Origin: a virus
DNA: 64,000 nucleotides
Strand: one strand, 5' to 3'
IMG/VR virus record: IMGVR_UViG_3300030118_004474
Span: 24,182 to 88,181 of that record
Part shown: positions 8,826-23,372 of the stretch, one piece after another
How positions within the stretch are numbered: the first letter of the stretch is position 1
How the letters are laid out: every line of letters begins with the position of its first letter
Translations under genes and position numbers: made by a program
The notes under the pieces: model-generated
Told to the model about the DNA's origin: nothing
Databases searched by the model: none
Seen by the model: the letters and a program-made list of their open reading frames with translations, nothing else

Positions 8826-9171
8826 TTTCCCACTCTTCCCAAGTTTGAGACGAATTATCAATCTCCGCCGTATCTGAAAGCCCTGCTTCATCGTCTTGAT
8901 ATTTTTCGTCGGGTTTCATACTTATCCAACCTCTATCTAGGGCCATTGTTATCAACTTTTCCGGTATTTCTTTACCATTATTGCTGAGAAAATCACACAA
9001 CACTAACCATTCTTCTGCCGATGCAGAGTATATTTCGTCGTGTAAATAAAACCCTTCAATTATACCATCTACTTTGATGGTCTTTTTTATTTTCTTTTGG
9101 TTATAGTAGTCCCTACGGTATTCTAATATTGCTCTGGGTGTTTCAATTAACATCTTTAGTAGCCACAGCAT
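8818..9171 (-). CDS. Hypothetical protein
   Basis: Operonic ORF. Confidence 0.55.
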   Translation of the reverse strand: MLWLLKMLIETPRAILEYRRDYYNQKKIKKTIKVDGIIEGFYLHDEIYSASAEEWLVLCDFLSNNGKEIPEKLITMALDRGWISMKPDEKYQDDEAGLSDTAEIDNSSQTWEEWENA

Positions 9172-9538
9172 TTTTAGAAGCCTCCGCCTTTAATTTATTA
9201 TAGTTCTTTAAATTTTGATTATATTTGAATTCAAAATAATTTACTGTTCCGTTCAAGTGACTTCTAATTGTTGCTAAGTCTCTTTTACCTAGAGTATTAA
9301 ACAGTTGTTTATCTAATTTATGATAACCGCTTTTGTTATGAAGCGACCAAATATAGGTAATAACAGTACCTTTAGGTCTGTTCTTTCTATTTGGTTCCCT
9401 GTAAGTTAGATATATTTCTTCTTCTAACATATATTCCGAAATTTGTTTTTTTGTCCATCTCATAATATCACCTTTTGGGGTTTTTACAGAACCCCTTAAC
9501 TGGCACTTCTTTTTCTTCTTAGTGCGAGAATAGAACAA
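9143..9538 (-). CDS. Hypothetical protein (true start probably MRWTKK near 9463)
   Basis: AGGTGA RBS precedes the internal Met. Confidence 0.55.
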   Translation of the reverse strand: MFYSRTKKKKKCQLRGSVKTPKGDIMRWTKKQISEYMLEEEIYLTYREPNRKNRPKGTVITYIWSLHNKSGYHKLDKQLFNTLGKRDLATIRSHLNGTVNYFEFKYNQNLKNYNKLKAEASKNAVATKDVN

Positions 9539-9553
9539 CGAACTGATTAGTCC

Positions 9554-9760
9554 TCAGTTCTGGCCTCCCACAATCGCTTGTGTCAGGATAACAGTTTCAA
9601 TGCTTTCTAGTGGAATATTAGCCACATCAGCATGAGCAACCATTTCGCCATTGATGTAAGCCCAATGGGTTGGGTGATTGTAAATCTGTTCTACTGCTTC
9701 TTCTGCGGACAAAACCAATTCGGTGTGTCCTGTGTCATTCAAAATCGTTACGTCTACCAT
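9554..9760 (-). CDS. Ubiquitin-like (beta-grasp, ThiS/MoaD/SAMP-type) protein with a GG-QN C-terminus
   Basis: 68 aa; VDVTIL...AYINGEMV...VILTQAIVGG followed by QN-stop; GAGGAGG RBS. Confidence 0.75.
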   Translation of the reverse strand: MVDVTILNDTGHTELVLSAEEAVEQIYNHPTHWAYINGEMVAHADVANIPLESIETVILTQAIVGGQN

Positions 9761-9762
9761 TT

Positions 9763-10041
9763 TTATTCCTCCTCATTTATTTCGTTGTTCTTAATTTGTG
9801 CCAAACATGCCTTTCGGAGTTTGGACTTTCCTCGCTGGATTTGTCCCTCGGTAAAAATACCCAAGGTCAACAAATCGTCTAGCATACGGCTCTTTTCGGA
9901 AACCATATATTCAAGTTCTTCTTTCTGTTCTGGGGTGAGATATTTCCCACCAGTCATTTTATCCATGAACTTTCTGACTTCTAGTTCAGTCATCAGTCCA
10001 CTTCGCATCATGCTATTCATCTGTTCCAACAATTCATTCAT
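9763..10041 (-). CDS. Hypothetical protein
   Basis: Operonic ORF, GGAGGTGA RBS. Confidence 0.6.
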   Translation of the reverse strand: MNELLEQMNSMMRSGLMTELEVRKFMDKMTGGKYLTPEQKEELEYMVSEKSRMLDDLLTLGIFTEGQIQRGKSKLRKACLAQIKNNEINEEE

Positions 10042-10261
10042 GTTTTTTCACCTCCCACACGGCAACGGAATAACTTCCATTTTGTCCTGTGAGTATTACT
10101 GTATTAACCTTTCTAAAATGCTGTGAAGCATGTAGTTTGGTTCCTACTGATTTTATGCTACCTATGTAGTATTTGTCTTTCAAATTGTATTGTATTTCAT
10201 GGGTTGATGACGGTCCCTTTTTTTCAAGAAATCTAGTCACAGCCTTTTCAAATCTATTCAT
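10034..10261 (-). CDS. Small winged-helix-like protein
   Basis: FLEKKGPSSTHEI...SVGTKL...FRKV...VWEV. Confidence 0.55.
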   Translation of the reverse strand: MNRFEKAVTRFLEKKGPSSTHEIQYNLKDKYYIGSIKSVGTKLHASQHFRKVNTVILTGQNGSYSVAVWEVKKHE

Positions 10262-10566
10262 TTTTTCACCTCATTACAAAATTTAGACCTTTCCATGCCT
10301 CGTAGCACGAGTCGTGGTATTTTTGTTTGATTTCTTCTGGGTGCATTAGTGGTCCTCCGCATATTTCACATTTATGTTCCATTAAATCACCTCAAATATC
10401 ACCAAAAATTTCTCCACAAATCGGTTCAATTTTTACGACCCAAATTGAGTCTTCGTTCCAAGTTTCAGGGGCAACTACCTCTCTACTAACAATTACTACC
10501 CTTTGTTTCATTCTCCTGTCTTTTATTTTCACCTTCATTTCTTATCACCTATCTGGGTTTTACCCA

Positions 10567-10773
10567 TCATTCAGTCCTCCAAAAAATAATTTCAATAACA
10601 CTAGTTGTCTCCAATGCTGATGGTTGTATTATTTCAAGAGTGAACCAACTCATTGTTTCGGTTTTGACATATTTACCAGTAGGGTAATCTTTGCCTAATC
10701 TAGTGTATTCCTTCTCATTAACATATACGTTATGTGTTGTTTTCCCATGCTTCATAGATATTCCTCCAACCAT
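10567..10773 (-). CDS. Hypothetical protein
   Basis: Operonic ORF. Confidence 0.45.
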   Translation of the reverse strand: MVGGISMKHGKTTHNVYVNEKEYTRLGKDYPTGKYVKTETMSWFTLEIIQPSALETTSVIEIIFWRTE

Positions 10774-11240
10774 TGAGGGGCGGTCCCTTTTGTGTATTTA
10801 GCAAAACGAGCCTTTTCATTTATGTAATAATTCCGATATGCTTCTATTGGGTCTTTACATTTATACTCGTCAGGCATACATTGAGGTGGAGGGTAAAACT
10901 CCCCACCTTTAACGGGACTTTCTTTCAATAGTTCTAGTAATTCACTAGAAGCATGGACTTTATTATACCTTCGGCTATACTCGTTTAACATAGCAACCAA
11001 AAGGTCGTAGTGCCATAAGTAGTTCCCTTCTGTTTGCATAGTCCAAACAGTTGAAGGATGACCAACATGCACGGGTTTGTAAATATTCTTTAAAACATTC
11101 TTTGACTCTTTAAATGAGGTTTTTGACCACCAAGCAGTAGACAGCATTTGTGCTGATTCCAAGGGCATTTTTACAATGTGCTTATCACACAGTTGTTTTG
11201 CTATTTCTGTTGGGTCTTTTGATAGATAAAATATATTCAT
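10752..11240 (-). CDS. Pyrimidine-dimer DNA glycosylase / T4 endonuclease V-like protein
   Basis: MNIFYL...CDKHIVKMPLESAQMLST...YKPVHVGHPSTVW...NYLW...EY..RYNKVH...PPQCMPDEYK...AYRNYY family pattern. Confidence 0.8.
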   Translation of the reverse strand: MNIFYLSKDPTEIAKQLCDKHIVKMPLESAQMLSTAWWSKTSFKESKNVLKNIYKPVHVGHPSTVWTMQTEGNYLWHYDLLVAMLNEYSRRYNKVHASSELLELLKESPVKGGEFYPPPQCMPDEYKCKDPIEAYRNYYINEKARFAKYTKGTAPQWLEEYL

Positions 11241-11255
11241 TCTTCCACATTCCAT

Positions 11256-11790
11256 TTATTGTTTTTCTATTTTATAGAACATTTCTCACTACATAATGAG
11301 AGAGAATCCATATCTCCTACATTTTGTCAGCGAGAATGCCCGTTTCTCGTCATTTCTCATTTCTCATGAGTCTCATGGGGGTGTGCATCTACACACACCA
11401 CCACCACCACCACCAACTTACAATAATATATGATAATAATGAGAATATAAGAAATATAATAGATAATTGAAATATCCTAAACATTTTGTCATACTTAGTG
11501 TCTCACGAACTTTCTCATGTGAGAACATACGACAATTTGTAGGATTTATATAAAAACAAAAGAATATAACGCTCAAGAAAACATAAAGTGAATTTTAGAT
11601 TTGGTGAAATGTCAAGAATAGGAGATAACTTGGACACCAATGTTTTCAAGAGCATTACTGGTCATGGGTCTGAGTATATAAGGTGGTTCAGACCCCTTAT
11701 AAAGGACCGGAACGGTTATATACCCCTATATAGGTCTATATAGATTACATATATTTTTATACCAACTAAAGATTCTTTCCCTCTTTTCCT
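11256..11790. other. Non-coding strand-switch region, candidate replication origin or divergent promoter region
   Basis: No ORF; many TCTCA/TGAGA motifs, (CAC)n tract near 11396-11414, AT-rich stretch, several TTATA boxes; lies between the divergent gene blocks. Confidence 0.45.
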
Positions 11791-11874
11791 ACCATATGGT
11801 AGCAACGTAATTTGTATTTGCACCCCATATACTAACCCTCCGTCATGTATTGCCTAAAAAGGCAGGAGATAACA

Positions 11875-12489
11875 ATGGCAAAAGAACAAGAAATGATAAC
11901 TGACGAAAAATGGACTGCGTGGACAAACGCAATCATTGAATGGGGAGAGAACTTTGATTCTCACCTTCAAACATTGGTTGATGCCCCCGAAGGTCAATTT
12001 GAAATTGATGATGAAGAAATGGAAGCGAACTGGGCAACCATTCAAAACAAAATCAACCGTGGAAACAAGCGACCGGCCCGAAGGAACGACTTGAAAAAGC
12101 AAATTCAAGAAGAAGGACGAAAAATGCCCAACTGGCCCCATTCTCGTGGAGCCGGTTCATCTTTGACCCCAGAACAACAAGCGGCAAGAGACAAGTTCGC
12201 CGCAATTGCTCGTTTGGCGGCAATTGCTGAATATCAAGTCTTTGTTGAAAACGACGCAACCCACCTTTTGGTTCAGCGAGCATCCAAAGCGAATCAAACA
12301 GAAGGTGAAGAGTTCCCTTCGCAGGAAGCGTTTGTTGAATACCGGGAGAAAGCGGCCAAGGCAACTGCAACCGGCTACCTTTCAGGAAAAACGGCATTTT
12401 GGGGTGCAAAGGATGAAGAAGACAATGTTCTTCCCTTTGACTTCCAACAGAAGATTGTACGACCCATCCCTGTTGATAAGGAGGAGTAA
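11875..12489 (+). CDS. Hypothetical protein (cassette 1)
   Basis: GGAGA RBS before MAKEQ; visibly more GC-rich than flanking genes. Confidence 0.8.
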   Translation: MAKEQEMITDEKWTAWTNAIIEWGENFDSHLQTLVDAPEGQFEIDDEEMEANWATIQNKINRGNKRPARRNDLKKQIQEEGRKMPNWPHSRGAGSSLTPEQQAARDKFAAIARLAAIAEYQVFVENDATHLLVQRASKANQTEGEEFPSQEAFVEYREKAAKATATGYLSGKTAFWGAKDEEDNVLPFDFQQKIVRPIPVDKEE

Positions 12490-12919
12490 GGTTGTTCAAC
12501 CGCTTCTTTGATGATGACGACGATTGATTTCGTTTGAGTCAAACAACCAATGATAGAAAGTGCGAAGAGAACTCACTTTCTTGAGGTAATGACATTCTCA
12601 CCAATGCAGGTTTTGTGTCCTGCCCTTTTCCGGTTTCTCGTGCGGGGTGCTTCGCCGGAAAAAAATCAAAAAACACAACTTTTTTTTGTGGTTGGCCGCA
12701 TACAAATTACGCTCTCCTCCAACCATATGGTCATGCGAAAGCATATTATGACCGCAGGAGGTGAACGGGTGTTTGACGACGACGATGAGTGATGTCTTGT
12801 TTTAACACTTTTCCGTTACCATATGGTTGGGAGCAAGGCGAAAATTTGTGTAGTATAACGCTAACACCTTATATACCCAAGAAATACCAATGTAGTGCTG
12901 AAAAGCAGGAGGAAACAAC

Positions 12920-13282
12920 ATGAAACAAAAAACAGACCCCCACCAGCGACTCCTCGCAAGGGCTAACGCCTTTGTGATGGATGACACAAAAGAAGAAGAA
13001 GAGGTTGCTGATTGCAAAGTTCTCATTGGCCGCTTTACGGAAGCCATTGAGGCTCAAAATGATGCTCGGATTGCCCGATACTCCGAGCGACTTGCCGTTC
13101 ACATCAAAGGAACAAAGGTCAGCATTTCCTTGTCCGAGGATGAAGTGGCCGAAGCCACAAGAACAGCCGAGGCCTTCAAAACCTTCTTTGACACATACCC
13201 AACTCTTTCCGTCCCAAGGGAACACACCCTTGAAAAATTCACGGCGGCTTTCATCTCAGCGATGAAGGAGGCCAAAAAGTGA
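12920..13282 (+). CDS. Hypothetical protein (cassette 2)
   Basis: TTATATA box near 12869, GGAGG RBS. Confidence 0.8.
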   Translation: MKQKTDPHQRLLARANAFVMDDTKEEEEVADCKVLIGRFTEAIEAQNDARIARYSERLAVHIKGTKVSISLSEDEVAEATRTAEAFKTFFDTYPTLSVPREHTLEKFTAAFISAMKEAKK

Positions 13283-13468
13283 TTCGTCGGGATGACGACG
13301 AGTGAGGTTTAGGCCTCGCCCCCCGGACTCTCTCCTAAATCGGGCATGAGGGGAGGGTCCACTTGGGGTTTATTCGCTTCACAAATTTTCGCTCTGCATT
13401 AAAATGCTACCATATGGTAGGGGATAATTTGTAGGCACACCCCATATTCTAAACGTGATTCATGGAGT

Positions 13469-13645
13469 ATGTTTTGGAGCAAGAAGCCGACATTTACCAT
13501 TAAAGTGAAACAAAACCGATACGAAAGATTCATCATTGATGAGTTGCGAATTACTAATATCAGCGAGGAAAATCTTGCTGATACTTTGATGCGAGCAATT
13601 GCAGAGATTGAACAAAAACTTAGCGTATTGAACGGAGAGGATTAA
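13469..13645 (+). CDS. Small hypothetical protein, 58 aa (MFWSKKPTF...)
   Basis: Read manually; first ORF of cassette 3, abuts the next ATG at 13646. Confidence 0.5.
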   Translation: MFWSKKPTFTIKVKQNRYERFIIDELRITNISEENLADTLMRAIAEIEQKLSVLNGED

Positions 13646-13767
13646 ATGAGCAGAGATGAATTGATAGAACTTTTGCAGTTCGTCATTAAAGCGTTAGAGG
13701 CGATGGAAGATGACTGTAAAATTGACCAATACCAACAAACACTTGATACCTTGCGAGGTGAGGATGA

Positions 13768-13998
13768 ATGAAAGCATACCAATGCCCTGACTGTGGAAAA
13801 ACCGACTACATGAAATCCGTGGAAGAAGAGGTTCACTACTACGACATTCACCCCAATGAAGAGGGCGAAAAAACCTACACGGGACATTCTAATATTGTTG
13901 ATGGTCGCATTGATTTTATTTTGTGCCTGAACTGTGGTAGAGATTTTCAAGAATCCCAGTTGAAAGAAATGGTCGTTGATGCGGAGGAAGATGAATGA
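13768..13998 (+). CDS. Zn-ribbon protein
   Basis: CPDCG...CLNCG; GAGGTGA RBS; ATGA coupling. Confidence 0.7.
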   Translation: MKAYQCPDCGKTDYMKSVEEEVHYYDIHPNEEGEKTYTGHSNIVDGRIDFILCLNCGRDFQESQLKEMVVDAEEDE

Positions 13999-14180
13999 TT
14001 CAAAAGTTGTGTTTCGTTTGCAAAATACCCATATCAAATCAACTATCAAATACTCATACCTGTAAAAAATTAACCTGTCAGGCTGAGTATCAATACCAAC
14101 ACTATGAGTGGAGACAGGAACAAATGGATTACCTATACGGTATTTCATATAAACCAGAAGAAGAGGAGGAAGACGAATGA
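13995..14180 (+). CDS. Small Cys-rich protein
   Basis: CFVC...C...C; coupled to its neighbours. Confidence 0.55.
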   Translation: MIQKLCFVCKIPISNQLSNTHTCKKLTCQAEYQYQHYEWRQEQMDYLYGISYKPEEEEEDE

Positions 14181-14395
14181 TTTCCCACGACGCATTTATG
14201 GGCATGACCGATGAACATTGGTCAATGCAAGACCAACTAATATTTCTTGCTGAAAATGAAGATTGGTGCGACCTATTTTTCAGGGTGATTAAAAAAGAAT
14301 GGGAAGCCATTGCCGATACGATGGAAATTTCTTGTCTTCAAGCATTCGCTAAAAGCAGAGGTTTGAAACTGACATTGTTTGAAGACCCGGAGTGA
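14177..14395 (+). CDS. Hypothetical protein
   Basis: Coupled ORF with GAGGA RBS. Confidence 0.6.
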   Translation: MISHDAFMGMTDEHWSMQDQLIFLAENEDWCDLFFRVIKKEWEAIADTMEISCLQAFAKSRGLKLTLFEDPE

Positions 14396-14639
14396 TTTGA
14401 TGAAATATAATCTATACTACGGAATAAGACTTCATTCTTCACATGAAACATTGAGGGATGCAAAAAATGAAAAAAAGCGATTAAACTCACCAAAGGCGGT
14501 TGTGATTTTTTATCATGGTCGTCGTGTGGGATGATTGGGCGGAGGGTGGCAAAAAGCGTGATTGCTTGACAATCTGGCTCTGTGCAAAAGGGCTGGTTAT
14601 TCTCACGTTGTTCAAGGAGCAAAAGAAGATAACTAATAG

Positions 14640-14895
14640 TAAATGGTAGGTAGAAACCATATCTGAGTATTGCACGAAAAGATAGAACTATCTACCCCTA
14701 CATCGTTAGTAATGCGGGGGCGCAATTTGCGTATCGTTAATTACCGTAAGGGTGAGATGCCCCCATTAGTTTCCTTAATGGAATGTGGTTTGTTAGGATT
14801 AAAAAAGGAAAAAGTTTGCTAATCCGGCTAACATGGGGGTTTTCGGTGCCTCCTTTCCTTTCCACATTCTATTATTTGATTATTTTTTTTATTTT
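14640..14895 (+). ncRNA. Candidate structured non-coding RNA ending in a T-tract
   Basis: Nested stems GGTAGGTAG/CTATCTACC, TAATGCGGGGGC/GCCCCCATTA, GAATGTGG/CCACATTC enclosing TGTTAG/CTAACA and GGATTA/TAATCC; no credible ORF. Confidence 0.4.
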
Positions 14896-15129
14896 GGGGT
14901 GCCTACAAATTATACAACCATATGGTAACTTTGGTAGCCAAAAAAAACATAAAAATAAATGAATGTTTTCAGAATTTTCCAAAAATATTTAAATAACATA
15001 ACCCACGAGTCATATTTAGAGCCTCCCAACATGAAATATTCTACCAAACCAATACAAAACTGAAAAAAATAAACAAAAACGCCCCCTAAAATGAAAAAAA
15101 CCGGCCAAAACGCCCCCGGAAGTGAAAAA

Positions 15130-16047
15130 ATGTGGTTCAATGTGCTAAAAAACACAGAAAGGAGAGCCGCCTACCGTCAATTTCGCAATACTTTTTTCCC
15201 AAAGGGCGAGTTTTACTACGATATGTCCACAGTTGAAAAAATTAAAGATACTGAAAAAAGATATAATAAGGGGACGGCCCTTACCGTTATAGTAATAAAG
15301 CCAGCAAATGGTCTTTTTAGGCTTTATTTTAATCCTCTTTATAACAGAATAGTATTGGAAAGCGATGTCGCCAGTATTGCGCCCTATGTTGGATTCATTG
15401 CTGGTATGTTTGAGGAAGAATATCCGGAATCTTACCAATCCATCAGAGAGGAATTGACTTCTGTTTATAATAATCTGGCACACCCCGATGAAATCGCAGG
15501 GAGGGCGGAGCCTGTTCTCCCTATACCGAAAAGGGTCTTCAGAAAAATGAGGATTATTTTTCAAGAAATTTCAGACACCTTGCAAGAAAGAATAACTACA
15601 ACTGTTTCAGCCGATTCTAATAGAGCAGGTGGCTTATATCCGAGGTACGCACCACGTCCCTTTGACCCACGCCGACTAGTTGACACAATACGTATAATGT
15701 TTGATTATAGGCCCCCCATGAAAAAAATAATACAAAAATTTGATATGCCTTCAAACGAAAACGATATTCCCAAGGCTATATTACATTCAGTTTATACCCC
15801 TTTTATTTCAAATGCTAAAAGGGAATATCCGGATTTTGTTTGGGGACATATTGTTAATTTTTATGTTGCTTTCGGAGATTTACTGTCAAAACAAATAAAA
15901 GGCGATACAAGACTAGAAATATTTGATTCAATTATACAATATGACGAAGAGGAAGTAGCGGCATATATATTTCAAATTTGGCAAAGAGAAGACCGTTATA
16001 GAAATTTATTACTAGAAAATTTACCATATGAAGAATATAATGATTAA
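15130..16047 (+). CDS. Hypothetical protein with W-x-x-h-h-K leader (MWFNVLK)
   Basis: Start moved to the Met that begins the shared leader. Confidence 0.75.
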   Translation: MWFNVLKNTERRAAYRQFRNTFFPKGEFYYDMSTVEKIKDTEKRYNKGTALTVIVIKPANGLFRLYFNPLYNRIVLESDVASIAPYVGFIAGMFEEEYPESYQSIREELTSVYNNLAHPDEIAGRAEPVLPIPKRVFRKMRIIFQEISDTLQERITTTVSADSNRAGGLYPRYAPRPFDPRRLVDTIRIMFDYRPPMKKIIQKFDMPSNENDIPKAILHSVYTPFISNAKREYPDFVWGHIVNFYVAFGDLLSKQIKGDTRLEIFDSIIQYDEEEVAAYIFQIWQREDRYRNLLLENLPYEEYND

Positions 16048-16138
16048 ATTTACTGTGGGAATAAAAATAAAAAAGAAAAAAAAATTTCGCAAGTGGCAAA
16101 AAAATTCCGGGGCAATTTTTGAAAAAGGGGGTGCAATT

Positions 16139-17284
16139 ATGGGTTGGGAGAATGTAATAAAAAACGCCCAAGACGAAAGGATTCAAGAGATACAAGACCT
16201 TGTTAGCGAAATAAAAGAAAATGAGTTTTATGATGAAGCGGTGCGAATAAGTGGACCGTACACTTTTAGGAGTCACATTATCACAAATAATATATTAGAT
16301 GATAAGGTTGGGATTAAAGAAGCCCTCTACAATAATATTACTAAAGCAAAGCCCCAACTTGAGGGTATTGATTATGAAGACATACCCGAACCACTTTTAA
16401 ACAGGAGTTTTAGGGAAATTCGGGATATGCTTAGTAGTTTAAATAAGGCGTTAAAAAATTACCCAACACGCTTAAACAAAATGCAAGCGGCGTATGAAAG
16501 ACTTATATCCCACCCCGAATGGGACGAAAAATATCTAGACAATTCGGAAGCCAGCAAACTTAAAGTAGGGAGTTTCCATGAGGGAGTCGCAAAAATATTT
16601 AGGGGCTTGAATCAAGGGGAAATAAATGAAAAAACGCCTGTGAAAGATTTTGTTGATTTTTATGTGGATGGACCAAAGCGGCGAGATATTATTAGAATTG
16701 AAAACGCAATTATAGCGGCAACCCGTGACTTTTCTACAATTTATTCTAGGTTGAGTTTAAGTAGAAGTATGGGTTTCTTTGAAGATATGGGAAAAACTAT
16801 GGGCGTTGAGATTAAGCAAGACCAAAGAGGAAACCCATCCTTTGACCACGGCGGTTTAACTTTTTCATTTGAAGGTAAAACCAGTTTAGTAATAAATGGT
16901 GGTCCAACCCGTGTGTCAGTTTGTGTGGTGTCAAGGAATAAGTCCCTACCCATAGGGGACTATTATGCCCAATTACTTGGAATGGTTGTTGCTAGACCCA
17001 CGGAACTAGATGTAGTGGATTTCGGTATTCAACTCGCTAATATTTTCAAAAAATATGAGAACTATTGGGGTCAATTTACAAGGGCAAAGAGTGGGATTAT
17101 TATTTATACACCGTTTAGTAGGGATAATACGGAAAATGTTACATTTATGGGTTTAATAGATTTTTTATATGTATTGACACAGGGTAACATTTATGAAGCC
17201 GACCCCGAAATTGCAAAAGAATTACTACAAGAAATAGAGGGTGCTTTGATGGATTCTTTCGGTTCTACTAGGGGGTTCTTATGA
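16139..17284 (+). CDS. Hypothetical protein with leader (MGWENVIK) and conserved-Cys domain
   Basis: GGGGTG RBS; VCVVSRNKSLPIGDYYAQL motif. Confidence 0.75.
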   Translation: MGWENVIKNAQDERIQEIQDLVSEIKENEFYDEAVRISGPYTFRSHIITNNILDDKVGIKEALYNNITKAKPQLEGIDYEDIPEPLLNRSFREIRDMLSSLNKALKNYPTRLNKMQAAYERLISHPEWDEKYLDNSEASKLKVGSFHEGVAKIFRGLNQGEINEKTPVKDFVDFYVDGPKRRDIIRIENAIIAATRDFSTIYSRLSLSRSMGFFEDMGKTMGVEIKQDQRGNPSFDHGGLTFSFEGKTSLVINGGPTRVSVCVVSRNKSLPIGDYYAQLLGMVVARPTELDVVDFGIQLANIFKKYENYWGQFTRAKSGIIIYTPFSRDNTENVTFMGLIDFLYVLTQGNIYEADPEIAKELLQEIEGALMDSFGSTRGFL

Positions 17285-22612: not shown

Positions 22613-23372
22613 TTGGTTTGATGTTCTAAAAATTAAAACCCCCGAAGGGGAAATGATGGTTGTTAACAGCATTACTGAATACCATAATAAACTTAGAGAA
22701 GAACTTAGACCAATTGTTCTTGAGGAACTACGTTTAACTAGCGAAAGAGATACAGAAAAAACGAAAATTAATATCAAACCATATCGTATAGTAGACGGTG
22801 TTCGTTATAATGCTTCTTGGAGAGATAAAAATAGTGAAAATACCCACTCAATAGATATTAGGTATAGGGGTAGCGGAAATGAAAATGAACCCCATGAAAT
22901 CATATCTATTACTTCGGATAATTTGGGTCCTGCCCTACAAATGGGGACAAACTATGAAGCCACCAATTCTTACGATTTACTTTTAGAAGTTACAGATAAA
23001 ATAGAAGATTTTTATGAACAGAAATTTAGAACAGAAACTCTTGGTGTTCCTTCTGTTGAAGAGGATGAGGATAGAGTTTCAACAGAAGAATTTAATAGAA
23101 AATTAGAGGAGGCTAATCCCGGCTTTAAATTTATTGAAGGAAAACTAAGGGACTTAGGGGATATGGGAAGGCTTGCCAATATGAAGGGAATTACTCTTGA
23201 TGCTTTACTAAGTAGATATAATCTAACACCTAGAGACTTTTTAGATAATATGACCGCTAGAGAAATTCCTCCACAAAATCAACCAACTAGAAGAGAAAAT
23301 TTAAATGTTAGACCTCCGATGAGGAGAGCACCTCCAATTAGAGGAAGAAGAGGAAGAAGAGAAGAACAATAA
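22605..23372 (+). CDS. Protein with leader (MFNWFDVLK) and Arg-rich tail
   Basis: GTG start; RRGRREEQ end. Confidence 0.7.
   Translation: MFNWFDVLKIKTPEGEMMVVNSITEYHNKLREELRPIVLEELRLTSERDTEKTKINIKPYRIVDGVRYNASWRDKNSENTHSIDIRYRGSGNENEPHEIISITSDNLGPALQMGTNYEATNSYDLLLEVTDKIEDFYEQKFRTETLGVPSVEEDEDRVSTEEFNRKLEEANPGFKFIEGKLRDLGDMGRLANMKGITLDALLSRYNLTPRDFLDNMTAREIPPQNQPTRRENLNVRPPMRRAPPIRGRRGRREEQ

Follow-up and report, generated by a model that had tools for sequence, protein, structure and literature searches.

A palindrome-bounded hyperplastic cassette array in a group B-type magrovirus genome

What does a 10-bp palindrome do when it is repeated between the small genes of a viral genome: does it mark promoters, points of recombination, or both? 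The locus that raises this question lies in a window of 64,000 nt, the whole stretch of DNA analysed here, which corresponds to positions 24,182-88,181 of the 88,181-bp record IMGVR_UViG_3300030118_004474. In gene content the genome agrees with the group B-type magroviruses, tailed viruses that infect Marine Group II archaea (Poseidoniales), and its host is archaeal rather than bacterial. Magroviruses, known from metagenomes only, rank with the most abundant archaeal viruses in surface seawater. To our knowledge, their promoters, their regulation and the plasticity of their genomes have not been described so far. Three magrovirus papers (among them PMC5434244, in its available sections) make no mention of palindromes, promoters or cassettes in their main texts.

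The genome encodes PolB, an ERCC4 nuclease, a chaperonin, ribonucleotide reductase, a ligase within the structural module, tRNA-Leu and tRNA-Arg. We assign it to group B because these features match the description in the accessible part of PMC5434244: a genome of ~90 kb with PolB, chaperonin, ribonucleotide reductase, an ATP-dependent ligase in the structural module, tRNA-Leu and tRNA-Arg. Its other enzymes include HNH and PD-(D/E)XK nucleases. The locus sits where the replication module, which runs leftward, and the rightward-running structural module diverge, a syntenic position kept among relatives, and the region is a hyperplastic cassette array (Table 1).

Table 1. Features of the cassette array. 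All positions are coordinates of the 64,000-nt window.
Feature	Position	Strand	Status
P1, junction palindrome ACCATATGGT, array left border	11791..11800	.	exact match
Cassette 1 left arm CGTAATTTGTAT, TTTG box upstream of promoter	11806..11817	+	
Cassette 1 TATA-like box CACCCCATATACTAA	11821..11835	+	predicted
ORF1, 204 aa, family F0, all-alpha	11875..12489	+	
Micro-ORF MFNRFFDDDDD, directly 3' of ORF1	12492..12527	+	
T8 run, archaeal-type terminator of cassette 1	12680..12687	+	inferred
Cassette 1 right arm, inverted TTTG box (ATACAAATTACG on + strand)	12700..12711	-	
P2, junction palindrome	12722..12731	.	exact match
Mini unit: hairpin ATGC-GAAA-GCAT, AGGAGG, micro-ORF MFDDDDE (12769-12792)	12732..12817	+	
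P3, junction palindrome	12818..12827	.	exact match
Cassette 2 left arm GCGAAAATTTGTG	12838..12850	+	
Cassette 2 TATA-like box ACCTTATATA	12866..12875	+	predicted
ORF2, 120 aa, family F3	12920..13282	+	
Micro-ORF MIRRDDDE after ORF2, overlapping ORF2 end	13279-13305	+	
Cassette 2 right arm (CACAAATTTTCGC on + strand)	13380..13392	-	
P4, junction palindrome	13409..13418	.	exact match
Cassette 3 left arm ATAATTTGTAGGCAC	13424..13438	+	
Cassette 3 TATA-like box ACCCCATATT	13439..13448	+	predicted
Six small ORFs of cassette 3: F1 (58 aa, MFW..K start), 41 aa, 76-aa zinc-ribbon protein, 61, 72, ~44 aa	13469..14534	+	
Conserved non-coding segment at cassette 3 3' end, with covarying helices	14535..14882	+	
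T8 run then T4 run, cassette 3 terminator	14883..14895	+	inferred
Cassette 3 right arm (GTGCCTACAAATTAT on + strand)	14899..14913	-	
P5, junction palindrome, array right border	14917..14926	.	exact match

A sequence-only reading of the window had described five copies of the palindrome as dividing the region into three cassettes and a mini unit, and had proposed counting the 10-mer genome-wide. All five exact copies of ACCATATGGT are present at those junctions (starting at 11791, 12722, 12818, 13409 and 14917, a span of 3.1 kb), and they are the only ones in the whole 88,181-bp genome, as are the exact copies of the 8-mer CCATATGG at the same sites. With up to one mismatch allowed, ACCATATGGT has 6 matches vs. 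1.78 expected, and at least 6 were reached in 0 of 100 shuffles. The sixth match, a one-mismatch site at 22778, lies outside the array. Four further whole records (90.8-96.3 kb) contain 12, 11, 7 and 13 copies, each set in one 3.1-4.4 kb array, and a reversed control pattern gave 0 matches in them; in 5 of 5 whole records, every copy is found in a single array of 3-4.5 kb. Like arrays are bounded by ACCATATGGT in 89 non-redundant related contigs. Across 81.8 kb of arrays there are 220 exact vs. 28 one-mismatch copies, most of the latter differing at an outer base only, an invariance that is partly built into the sample because relatives' arrays were collected by exact 10-mer search. The palindrome, its own reverse complement, is the only sequence common to all junctions. 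At the right border, P5 is followed by AACTTTGGTAGCC and an A-run, which are kept in 4 of the 4 lineage members that reach P5.

Each large unit reads as its own self-sufficient archaeal transcription unit, whose promoter, start site and terminator are predictions made from sequence alone. The 5' end would consist of ACCATATGGT, 6-9 nt, a TTTG box (AATTTGT in the window's lineage), 6-10 nt and a TATA-like ACCYYATAT; translation would start at a leaderless ATG ~25 nt further on, or at a Shine-Dalgarno-preceded ATG at 35-80 nt; and the gene or genes would be followed by a 3' hairpin or T-run, an inward-facing TTTG box and ACCATATGGT again. Of 79 promoter ends, 68 have a TTTG box no more than 34 nt from the palindrome, in 57 cases at a distance of 6-9 nt; of 79 terminator ends, 62 have one, with loose spacing (6-30 nt). 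The combination TTTG-N6-10-CCYYA is found at 57/72 promoter ends and 32/71 terminator ends, compared to 9/372 interior TTTG controls, and an ATG stands 25-29 nt past the TATA-like box in 14 of 47 cassettes. T-runs, 3' hairpins and the TATA-like box are located at the junctions, and the bipartite TTTG/TATA-like motif is essentially confined to the array in the window's genome. The palindrome is most likely bound by a dimeric sequence-specific protein, by which the promoters of this class would be marked and regulated together. A single rigid composite protein site would be insufficient for all junctions, because terminator-end spacing is loose and mini units have no TTTG box.

The start of ORF1 is most likely at 11875 rather than 11845, since its database twin is also 204 aa long and AGGAG lies upstream. 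Family F0, to which it belongs, is present in 20 of the first 40 arrays; together with F1 it is the most widespread of the cassette proteins, and both gave confident structural models (pLDDT 85 and 86) with no fold match. A leaderless start is suggested for the first ORF of cassette 3, as its ATG is ~28 nt downstream of ACCCCATATT. The mini unit between junctions 12722 and 12827, which the earlier reading had set at about 100 bp including its borders, is real and 86 nt long; its family has 83 members across the 89 arrays, placed in 45 different combinations of neighbours. RNA evidence consists of two contigs of one RNA library, which are unable to show transcript starts or ends. One begins at 11852, ~24 nt 3' of the cassette 1 TATA-like box, and is a weak hint only; the other spans 14486-14754, at the 3' end of cassette 3.

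Each large cassette had also been said to carry its own pair of inverted repeats, and cassettes 1 and 3 to share CACCCCATAT-x-CTAA. The pairs are indeed exact in all three cassettes (12, 13 and 15 bp), with non-self arm combinations in the window sharing 7-9 nt only, and the shared motif is present at 11821 and 13436. By their sequence, the AATTTGT arms are inward-facing copies of the family-wide promoter-upstream TTTG box. Own-arm matches of at least 12 nt occur in 7 of 84 cassettes vs. 0.87% of 6,896 non-self pairs; family-wide, excluding the window's lineage, own-pair matching beyond the shared box has p = 0.10, and where it is strong it is a property of that lineage only. Orthologous arms mostly change without compensation, those of cassette 2 included, and the spacers between arm and palindrome are unequal on the left and right (5 vs. 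10, 10 vs. 16, and 5 vs. 3 nt). In a comparison with TIR transposons and MITEs, inward-facing TTTG-box modules stand at both cassette ends with the palindrome flanking each side and 3-17 nt spacers between; small units have no boxes. From the covariation it had been argued that the two ends of a cassette pair or were copied together. The second half of that claim fits our data: the arms are probably the two TTTG-box modules of one cassette, copied together or homogenised in the window's lineage. Pairing does not, given p = 0.10 elsewhere and little compensation, and the arms are probably not an obligatory pairing signal.

Comparison among relatives shows rearrangements to have taken place at the palindromes. 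Unit gain, loss, reordering and inversion, which the sequence-only reading had suggested looking for, all occur with breakpoints at ACCATATGGT, as do swaps, transpositions and duplications, and homology ends 0-8 nt from palindrome edges. Contigs L103, L144 and L042+L053 show a transposition of unit 2 and an inversion of unit 5, the HSPs ending in this same range; L211 and L233 have two adjoining units in exchanged order, with ends at -1 or 0; and L002 and L214 (~96% identical) differ by two additional units, each palindrome-bounded. Inserted units always add one palindrome copy. The F3 cassette lies on the same strand as F0 and downstream of it in the window's lineage, and is inverted and upstream in L103, L144, L042 and L002. 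The order of cassette 1, mini unit, cassette 2 and cassette 3 is unchanged in 5 more contigs of the window's lineage (~70-75% nucleotide identity), which indicates that shuffling is episodic, not rapid. One relative has no counterpart of 13760-13986, inside cassette 3, so there is variation away from the palindromes as well.

Taken as a whole, ACCATATGGT probably serves an early promoter class as boundary and operator and is at the same time a point of recombination. Because the palindrome is its own reverse complement and the sole sequence common to all junctions, recombination between any two copies could produce deletion, duplication, transposition or inversion, and every unit would remain expressible afterwards. 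Counting against this explanation, 10 bp is very short for ordinary homologous recombination. A dedicated site-specific system, integron- or shufflon-like, in which ACCATATGGT is cleaved and religated by an as yet unrecognised enzyme of the virus or the host, would fit the invariance of all ten positions across very divergent viruses, the array confinement in all five whole records, breakpoints 0-2 nt from the palindrome in clean cases, the occurrence of both inversion and transposition (as a symmetric core would predict), the multi-copy small units in many contexts, the excess of long own-arm matches, and the encoded HNH, PD-(D/E)XK and ERCC4 nucleases and ATP-dependent ligase. In a circular form, one palindrome with an arm on either side would make up an imperfect hairpin-like site, and integration at the palindrome centre would split the arms to opposite ends. 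We nonetheless rate such a system as rather unlikely. Searches for tyrosine recombinases (PF00589, Phage_integrase) gave 0 matches at E<=1 in the virus's own record and four related whole records, with the control positive in 14/14 genomes; serine recombinases (PF00239, Resolvase) had 0 matches in the 5 records, 3 of which are rated 100% complete; the HUH transposase Y1_Tnp had none in the virus's own record; and no transposase turned up when 30 ORFs were scanned against Pfam. The integron- or shufflon-like module proposed earlier is not borne out by these searches. Own-arm matching that is weak outside the window's lineage, uncompensated change in the orthologous arms of cassette 2, unequal spacers and stable order across the lineage also argue against it.

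If the palindromes were solely transcription-factor sites of one promoter class, the rearrangements would be tolerated illegitimate recombination between independent genes. Consistent with this, the TTTG box keeps a tight distance of 6-9 nt at 57 of 68 promoter ends and the promoter class is confined to the array; the intergenic repeats of halovirus HF2 are class-specific promoters that keep their place and orientation among relatives, according to the available text of PMC8707807. However, nearly all array HSPs end 0-8 nt from palindrome edges instead of being scattered across intergenic DNA, breakpoints exactly inside the 10-mer are already seen in several events, non-coding small units with no recognisable promoter are palindrome-bounded too, and each inserted unit brings its additional copy, all of which makes this account improbable. 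Sites of replication origin or partition, as dyad-symmetric protein-binding boxes where gene strand and GC skew switch, are far less credible still. The copies are palindromic, clustered and unique in the genome, and the minimum of the cumulative GC skew falls at ~10-12 kb of the window, where gene orientation diverges; but they are spread over 3-4.5 kb with genes between, stand at a fixed distance from promoter elements and number 5 to 14 among relatives, and GC skew also tracks transcription direction.

Integron arrays likewise consist of single-gene units with inverted repeats that are specific to the cassette but share a core, and they too gain, lose and reorder units. They differ in that here inversion is frequent, a perfect palindrome forms the junction core, no IntI-type recombinase was found in the records searched, and cassettes have predicted promoters of their own in place of a shared Pc. 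An integron with promoterless cassettes and a common promoter is not supported, as each cassette bears its own promoter-like and terminator-like signals; no local attC-like hairpin was found at cassette 3' ends, the matching arms being 580-1,500 nt apart at opposite cassette ends. Shufflons and invertase switches (Rci, Hin/Gin) likewise have segments between short repeats that can be used inverted, comparable to the segment inversion among relatives. Here, in contrast, whole transcription units are involved rather than alternative 3' ends of one gene, transposition, duplication, gain and loss also occur, the recombinase searches were negative, and the window's lineage keeps its order across ~30% nucleotide divergence.

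The array resembles the PeSL cassettes of T4-type phages, on which Comeau et al. 2014 (PMC4122927) reportedly also wrote, yet it is archaeal and palindromic. PeSLs (promoter-early stem-loops) are mobile regulatory cassettes (Arbiol et al., 2010; PMC2839356, as far as its accessible text goes). According to the same portion of text, a hyperplastic region holds small genes, most of them unknown, between short conserved promoter and terminator motifs, insertion, deletion and replacement between related viruses map to the motifs, and every gene is an independent expression module. Correspondingly, the array has a predicted composite promoter and terminator motif and inter-genome differences at the motifs, lies at a syntenic module boundary and carries small genes that are for the most part unknown. 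It differs in its predicted archaeal signals (TATA-like box and T-run vs. sigma-70 promoters and stem-loop terminators), in the promoter-upstream box repeated inverted at the 3' end, and in having non-coding and micro-ORF units as cassettes; unlike in PeSLs, inversions also occur, because the junction core is a strictly invariant 10-bp palindrome. HF2, an archaeal tailed virus related to magroviruses (Russ, Pfeiffer and Dyall-Smith, 2021; PMC8707807, in the sections available), similarly has repeated intergenic motifs that are absent from the rest of its genome, form the BRE/TATA promoter of one temporal gene class and are thought to be bound by virus regulators. Its repeats are 56-58 or 29 bp, not palindromic, and fixed in place and orientation among relatives, whereas the units between repeats are shuffled here, and promoter activity is experimental in HF2 and predicted in the array.

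A bolder suggestion, which we regard as doubtful, is that magroviruses possess palindrome-targeted cassette exchange that uses none of the known recombinase families, with F0, F1 or a nuclease and ligase pair possibly cutting and rejoining ACCATATGGT. If true, it could excise, invert and insert transcription units, micro-ORF units and small RNA-like units, and archaeal viruses would then have a functional equivalent of integrons; if a dedicated enzyme were involved, it would be a new recombination system. The array itself yields a specific predicted promoter architecture and a 10-bp candidate operator that are testable in vitro, and in metagenomic data the palindrome is a practical marker that picks out such viruses together with their accessory early genes. 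The array shows that archaeal viruses, too, are shaped by shuffling at conserved regulatory boundaries, as described for T4-type phages, with the palindromic boundary adding inversion.

The palindrome ACCATATGGT occurs in the window in five exact copies, which divide the region 11791-14926 into three gene cassettes and a mini unit, as the sequence-only reading had it. The window comprises bases 24182-88181 of a single-contig genome of 88,181 bp, and genome-wide both this 10-mer and the 8-mer CCATATGG occur five times apiece, every copy lying inside the array region; CATATG by itself occurs 31 times in the whole genome. With up to one mismatch to ACCATATGGT allowed, there are six matches in the window vs. 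1.78 expected (0 of 100 shuffles reached six), the sixth being a one-mismatch copy at 22778. Four more whole records (90.8, 92.3, 93.8, and 96.3 kb) contain 12, 11, 7, and 13 copies, respectively, in a single array of 3.1-4.4 kb each, and zero copies of a reversed control pattern.

Palindrome copies and own-pair arms (the two inverted AATTTGT-core repeats just inside the ends of one cassette) in the window
Feature	Positions	Description
Palindrome ACCATATGGT	11791, 12722, 12818, 13409, 14917	exact copies in window
Cassette 1 arms, 12 nt	11806-11817 and 12700-12711	exact own pair
Cassette 2 arms, 13 nt	12838-12850 and 13380-13392	exact own pair
Cassette 3 arms, 15 nt	13424-13438 and 14899-14913	exact own pair

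Related arrays were collected by pattern. In IMG/VR, the palindrome with AATTTGT behind it matched at least 120 stretches, among them at least 8 loci (7 contigs) that have 5-12 palindromes apiece; a further scan for two palindromes spaced 78-105 nt apart returned 36 stretches, and metagenome contigs scanned for the palindrome plus the mini-unit start contributed 61 more. The non-redundant sample holds at least 89 arrays and at least 421 units. An unrelated two-copy locus (L057) and a short tandem array (L128) were excluded ahead of clustering, and two-palindrome loci without a micro-ORF (e.g., L122, L123, L134, L136, L139, L140, L143, and L147), which may be chance, add no gene cassettes to the counts. 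Among genome contigs, two palindromes 78-105 nt apart gave 31 chance-level matches in assorted bacteria and no Poseidoniales array. Because the exact 10-mer was the search key, part of the palindrome's invariance follows from the sampling; the independent evidence for it is the small number of near-copies within arrays, together with the whole-record counts. The 81.8 kb of the first 40 arrays contain 220 exact palindromes vs. 28 one-mismatch copies, most of the latter changed at the first or last base only, and the palindrome-adjacent base is A or T in 86%.

Named proteins of the genome include a family B DNA polymerase, an ERCC4 plus HhH nuclease, PD-(D/E)XK and HNH nucleases, a Cpn60/TCP-1 chaperonin, ribonucleotide reductase, a ThiF-like protein, and a pyrimidine-dimer glycosylase. 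An ATP-dependent ligase gene sits within the structural block, tRNA-Leu and tRNA-Arg genes are present, and PHROGs gave no match for most of the large proteins. The text of Philosof et al. (2017; PMC5434244) gives the same gene set for group B magroviruses, which infect Marine Group II Euryarchaeota, and the sequencing runs containing the stretch are labeled marine metagenome. Since the host is archaeal, the signals are to be read as BRE/TATA promoters, T-run terminators, and frequently leaderless mRNAs; a sigma-70 or Bacteroidetes-type promoter was abandoned on the same ground. The array is located where gene orientation turns from minus to plus and cumulative GC skew is minimal, and G+C at 12-14 kb (0.45) is higher than in the flanks (~0.36). 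Its position is kept in relatives, with the glycosylase/ribonucleotide-reductase side on one hand and structural genes on the other. A blastn search of 11000-16000 against INPHARED phages found a single, irrelevant 93-nt match.

By their sequence relationships, the cassette genes are other than random orphans. ORF1, the ORF of cassette 1, is one of the 27 members of family F0, which were found in 20 of the first 40 arrays. The cassette 2 ORF falls in F3, present at 8 loci, and cassette 3 opens with an ORF of family F1. F1 is present at 15 loci and can be aligned with F9, which adds 4 loci. F0 is predicted to be all-alpha (pLDDT 85) and F1 beta-beta-alpha (pLDDT 86.5). No known-fold match for F0 was found in the PDB with Foldseek at E ≤ 0.001 (best in BFVD 3e-3, unnamed), and nothing usable for F1 (best VIA Z 4.0). 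The protein atlas returned unnamed clusters only, and Pfam and PHROGs gave weak zinc-ribbon matches to cassette proteins and nothing more. A peptide-pattern search of IMG/VR found no relatives of ORF1 or of the 318-aa right-flank protein, and a search of metagenome contigs with ORF1 yielded none. The F1-type ORF at 13469 and its relatives open with MFW(K/S)K; their mRNA is probably leaderless, as the ATG lies 27-28 nt past a TATA-like box in several relatives.

If the palindromes are boundaries of exchangeable units, related genomes should differ there in unit content, order, or orientation, as the sequence-only reading expected, and comparison did reveal swapped, transposed, inverted, and extra units. 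In the ~82-86% identical loci L103, L144, and L042+L053, unit 2 is flanked by units 4 and 7 in L103 but by units 8 and 9 in L144, and unit 5 is inverted and relocated in L042. The HSPs here end at a distance of 0-8 nt from the edges of palindromes, with one apparent exception at a one-mismatch palindrome, TCCATATGGT. Between L211 and L233 an adjacent unit pair is swapped, with HSP ends at -1 or 0, and there is one extra mini unit; between L002 and L214 (~96% identical), the latter has two additional units (283 and 98 nt) with palindromes on each side. Protein order is F0, mini unit, F3, F1 on one strand throughout in the window's lineage, and inverted F3, then F0 and F1 in L103, L144, L042, and L002; F1 precedes F0 in L121, L126, and L133. 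The order cassette 1, mini unit, cassette 2, cassette 3 is held in five further own-lineage contigs (~70-75% nucleotide identity; one with an extra 109-nt unit on the left), which argues against rapid switching. Assembled contigs contained no inversion or circular joints, although assemblies cannot show minority forms and, in the non-source runs, covered only some of the parts. One related population (run X6) is without 13760-13986 (227 nt, approximately the zinc-ribbon ORF of 76 aa), a gene-sized deletion within cassette 3, away from the palindromes. A replacement of cassette 2 in L146/L148, suggested by DNA clustering, was rejected: its ends and F3 protein are homologous.

When cassette ends are aligned according to gene direction, they resemble transcription signals. 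A TTTG box (consensus tACTTTGT; AATTTGT in the window's lineage) is present at 68 of 79 promoter ends, beginning 6-9 nt from the palindrome in 57 of the 68, and an inward-facing TTTG box is found at 62 of 79 terminator ends, 6-30 nt from the palindrome. CCYYA lies 6-10 nt past the TTTG box at 57/72 promoter ends and 32/71 terminator ends, vs. 9/372 interior TTTG controls. The TATA-like element of promoter ends is ACCTTATAT or ACCCCATAT; the CACCCCATAT-x-CTAA that had been noticed downstream of the left arms of cassettes 1 and 3 is present in both, CACCCCATAT being the TATA-like box. The ORF opens with an ATG 25-29 nt past this element in 14 of 47 cassettes, the spacing expected of leaderless archaeal mRNA, and most others have a GGAG- or GGTGA-like sequence ahead of a later ATG. 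The terminator-end element leads into an A-rich stretch, which gives a T-run in the sense strand; runs of at least 5 T occur in 31/79 last-80-nt segments vs. 3/79 first-80-nt segments, and CCC-TTCG-GGG-type hairpins are frequent near terminator ends. Because this bipartite TTTG/TATA-like motif is essentially confined to the array within this genome, we interpret the arms as the upstream box of a special promoter class, with an inverted copy behind the terminator. An RNA-library contig begins at 11852, ~24 nt past the cassette 1 TATA-like box, only a hint of a transcript start, as contigs cannot prove starts.

The intergenic region left of the array (11530-11760) contains AATTTGTAGGATTTATATAAAAAC, a TTTG box right before a canonical-looking TATA box with no palindrome; positions 11717-11742 of this region are palindromic and rich in TATA. 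On the other flank, past the final palindrome (14927-14950), AACTTTGGTAGCC and an A-run are found in 4/4 lineage members reaching there, including L146, L148, and L221; this region could be a promoter of the rightward structural genes or a terminator of leftward transcription.

Whether the arms also act in pairs is a separate matter. Non-self arm combinations in the window have merely 7-9 nt in common, and across the sample the longest exact match between own ends is at least 12 nt in 7 of 84 cassettes, vs. 0.87% of 6,896 non-self pairs. Over 16 flanking positions aligned on TTTG, own pairs agree at a mean of 7.22 (37 independent clusters) vs. 6.03 for other pairs from the same genome (n = 168; p = 0.0098), and at 6.69 with the window's lineage removed (n = 32; p = 0.10). 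This test omitted cassettes with a TTTG box <6 nt from the palindrome, including two L126 cassettes having 12-13 nt own matches. The two sides of one palindrome agree at 6.36 (n = 14), no better than random pairs. Orthologues of cassette 2 retain GCGnAAATTTGnGnAG in both arms, with no joint change at variable positions; in those of cassette 1 a single position is concerted (window and L146 G/G, L221 A/A, L148 and L238 A/G). For cassette 3, comparing the window with L146 gives a single such position, and L148 and L221 have none. Thus, of the earlier proposal that cassette ends pair or were copied together, the exact own pairs stand, but the orthologue changes and the lineage-removed test speak against a conserved pairing signal. 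The arms look like two copies of one module, once identical or occasionally homogenized; the inverted one behind the terminator may serve as an antisense promoter or as a roadblock, or may be left over from the origin of cassettes. We rejected a processing stem (RNase III or rRNA-like) in which the arms would pair as RNA, because neither belongs to the predicted transcript: the left one precedes the TATA-like box and the right one follows the T-run.

The mini unit is the commonest unit (83 copies in the 89-array sample, at most 3 per array), a frequency inflated by choosing part of the sample through it. Its neighbors form 45 different combinations, and it is found facing either way relative to F0-type cassettes. 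Of 56 units of 70-125 nt, 31 follow one plan, made up of a short hairpin (stem sequence variable among copies, pairing retained), GGAGG, and the micro-ORF M-[F/Y]-x-D-D-[D/E]-E. Micro-ORFs with acidic-run ends, each after GGAGG, are located in the window at 12492-12527, 12769-12792, and 13279-13305, two directly behind ORF1 and the cassette 2 ORF and the third in the mini unit, and in 31 units elsewhere; the peptide is kept despite codon variation, which suggests translation. Recurrent ORF-less units of ~135-190 nt (in L103, L144, L042/L053, L002, and L012), one type with the hairpin GCAGTATTCA..AATACTGC, are the arrays' most mobile elements and perhaps encode small RNAs.

A conserved non-coding stretch closes cassette 3 on its 3' side (14500-14916; L146:6120-6544, L148:5950-6367, L221:4610-5031) and probably forms a structured RNA. 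One of its helices is long-range; another, of 11 bp (ATGGAATGTGG / CCACATTCTAT), retains its pairing in some sequences despite two-sided changes. It also has near-invariant blocks such as CATCGTTAGTAATG and CTATCGTTAATTACC. RNAalifold predicted 56 pairs from the four sequences, 19 with a double change, and an RNA-library contig spans 14486-14754. An Rfam search of 9000-17000 at E ≤ 1 gave one chance match only (Plasmodium RUF1, 22.7 bits vs. a 70-bit cut-off).

An integron- or shufflon-like module, as the sequence-only reading proposed, would call for a recombinase elsewhere in the genome, but six-frame profile searches in which the controls fired found no Phage_integrase, Resolvase, or Y1 HUH transposase match in the window's own record, and no Phage_integrase or Resolvase in four related ones (completeness rated 88% for the own record and 100% for three of the four). 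Rearrangement ends at the palindromes are what a dedicated but unrecognized site-specific recombination system acting on them would leave; we regard such a system as possible but rather unlikely. Candidate activities encoded by the virus are the HNH, PD-(D/E)XK, and ERCC4 nucleases and the ligase, and a host-encoded recombination enzyme is possible. Shuffling by restriction and religation was rejected because routine cutting at 5-13 genome sites would be lethal.

We found no prior printed description of the array or its palindrome. The main texts of three magrovirus papers contain no "palindrom-", "promoter", or "cassette", although their supplements could hold motif data, and a literature text search for the 10-mer gave primer and cloning contexts only, among the matches listed.

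The reading we adopt is that each junction is a composite terminator-operator-promoter boundary whose invariant palindrome doubles as a recombination point. We infer that a protein binds the palindrome and, likewise, the mechanism by which recombination would occur there. So read, the array works like the PeSL cassettes of T4, as these are outlined in PMC2839356, and differs from them in being archaeal, palindromic, and inversion-permitting; it also works like the promoter-bearing intergenic repeats of halovirus HF2, as outlined in PMC8707807, with its palindromes and tolerance of inversion as traits of its own.
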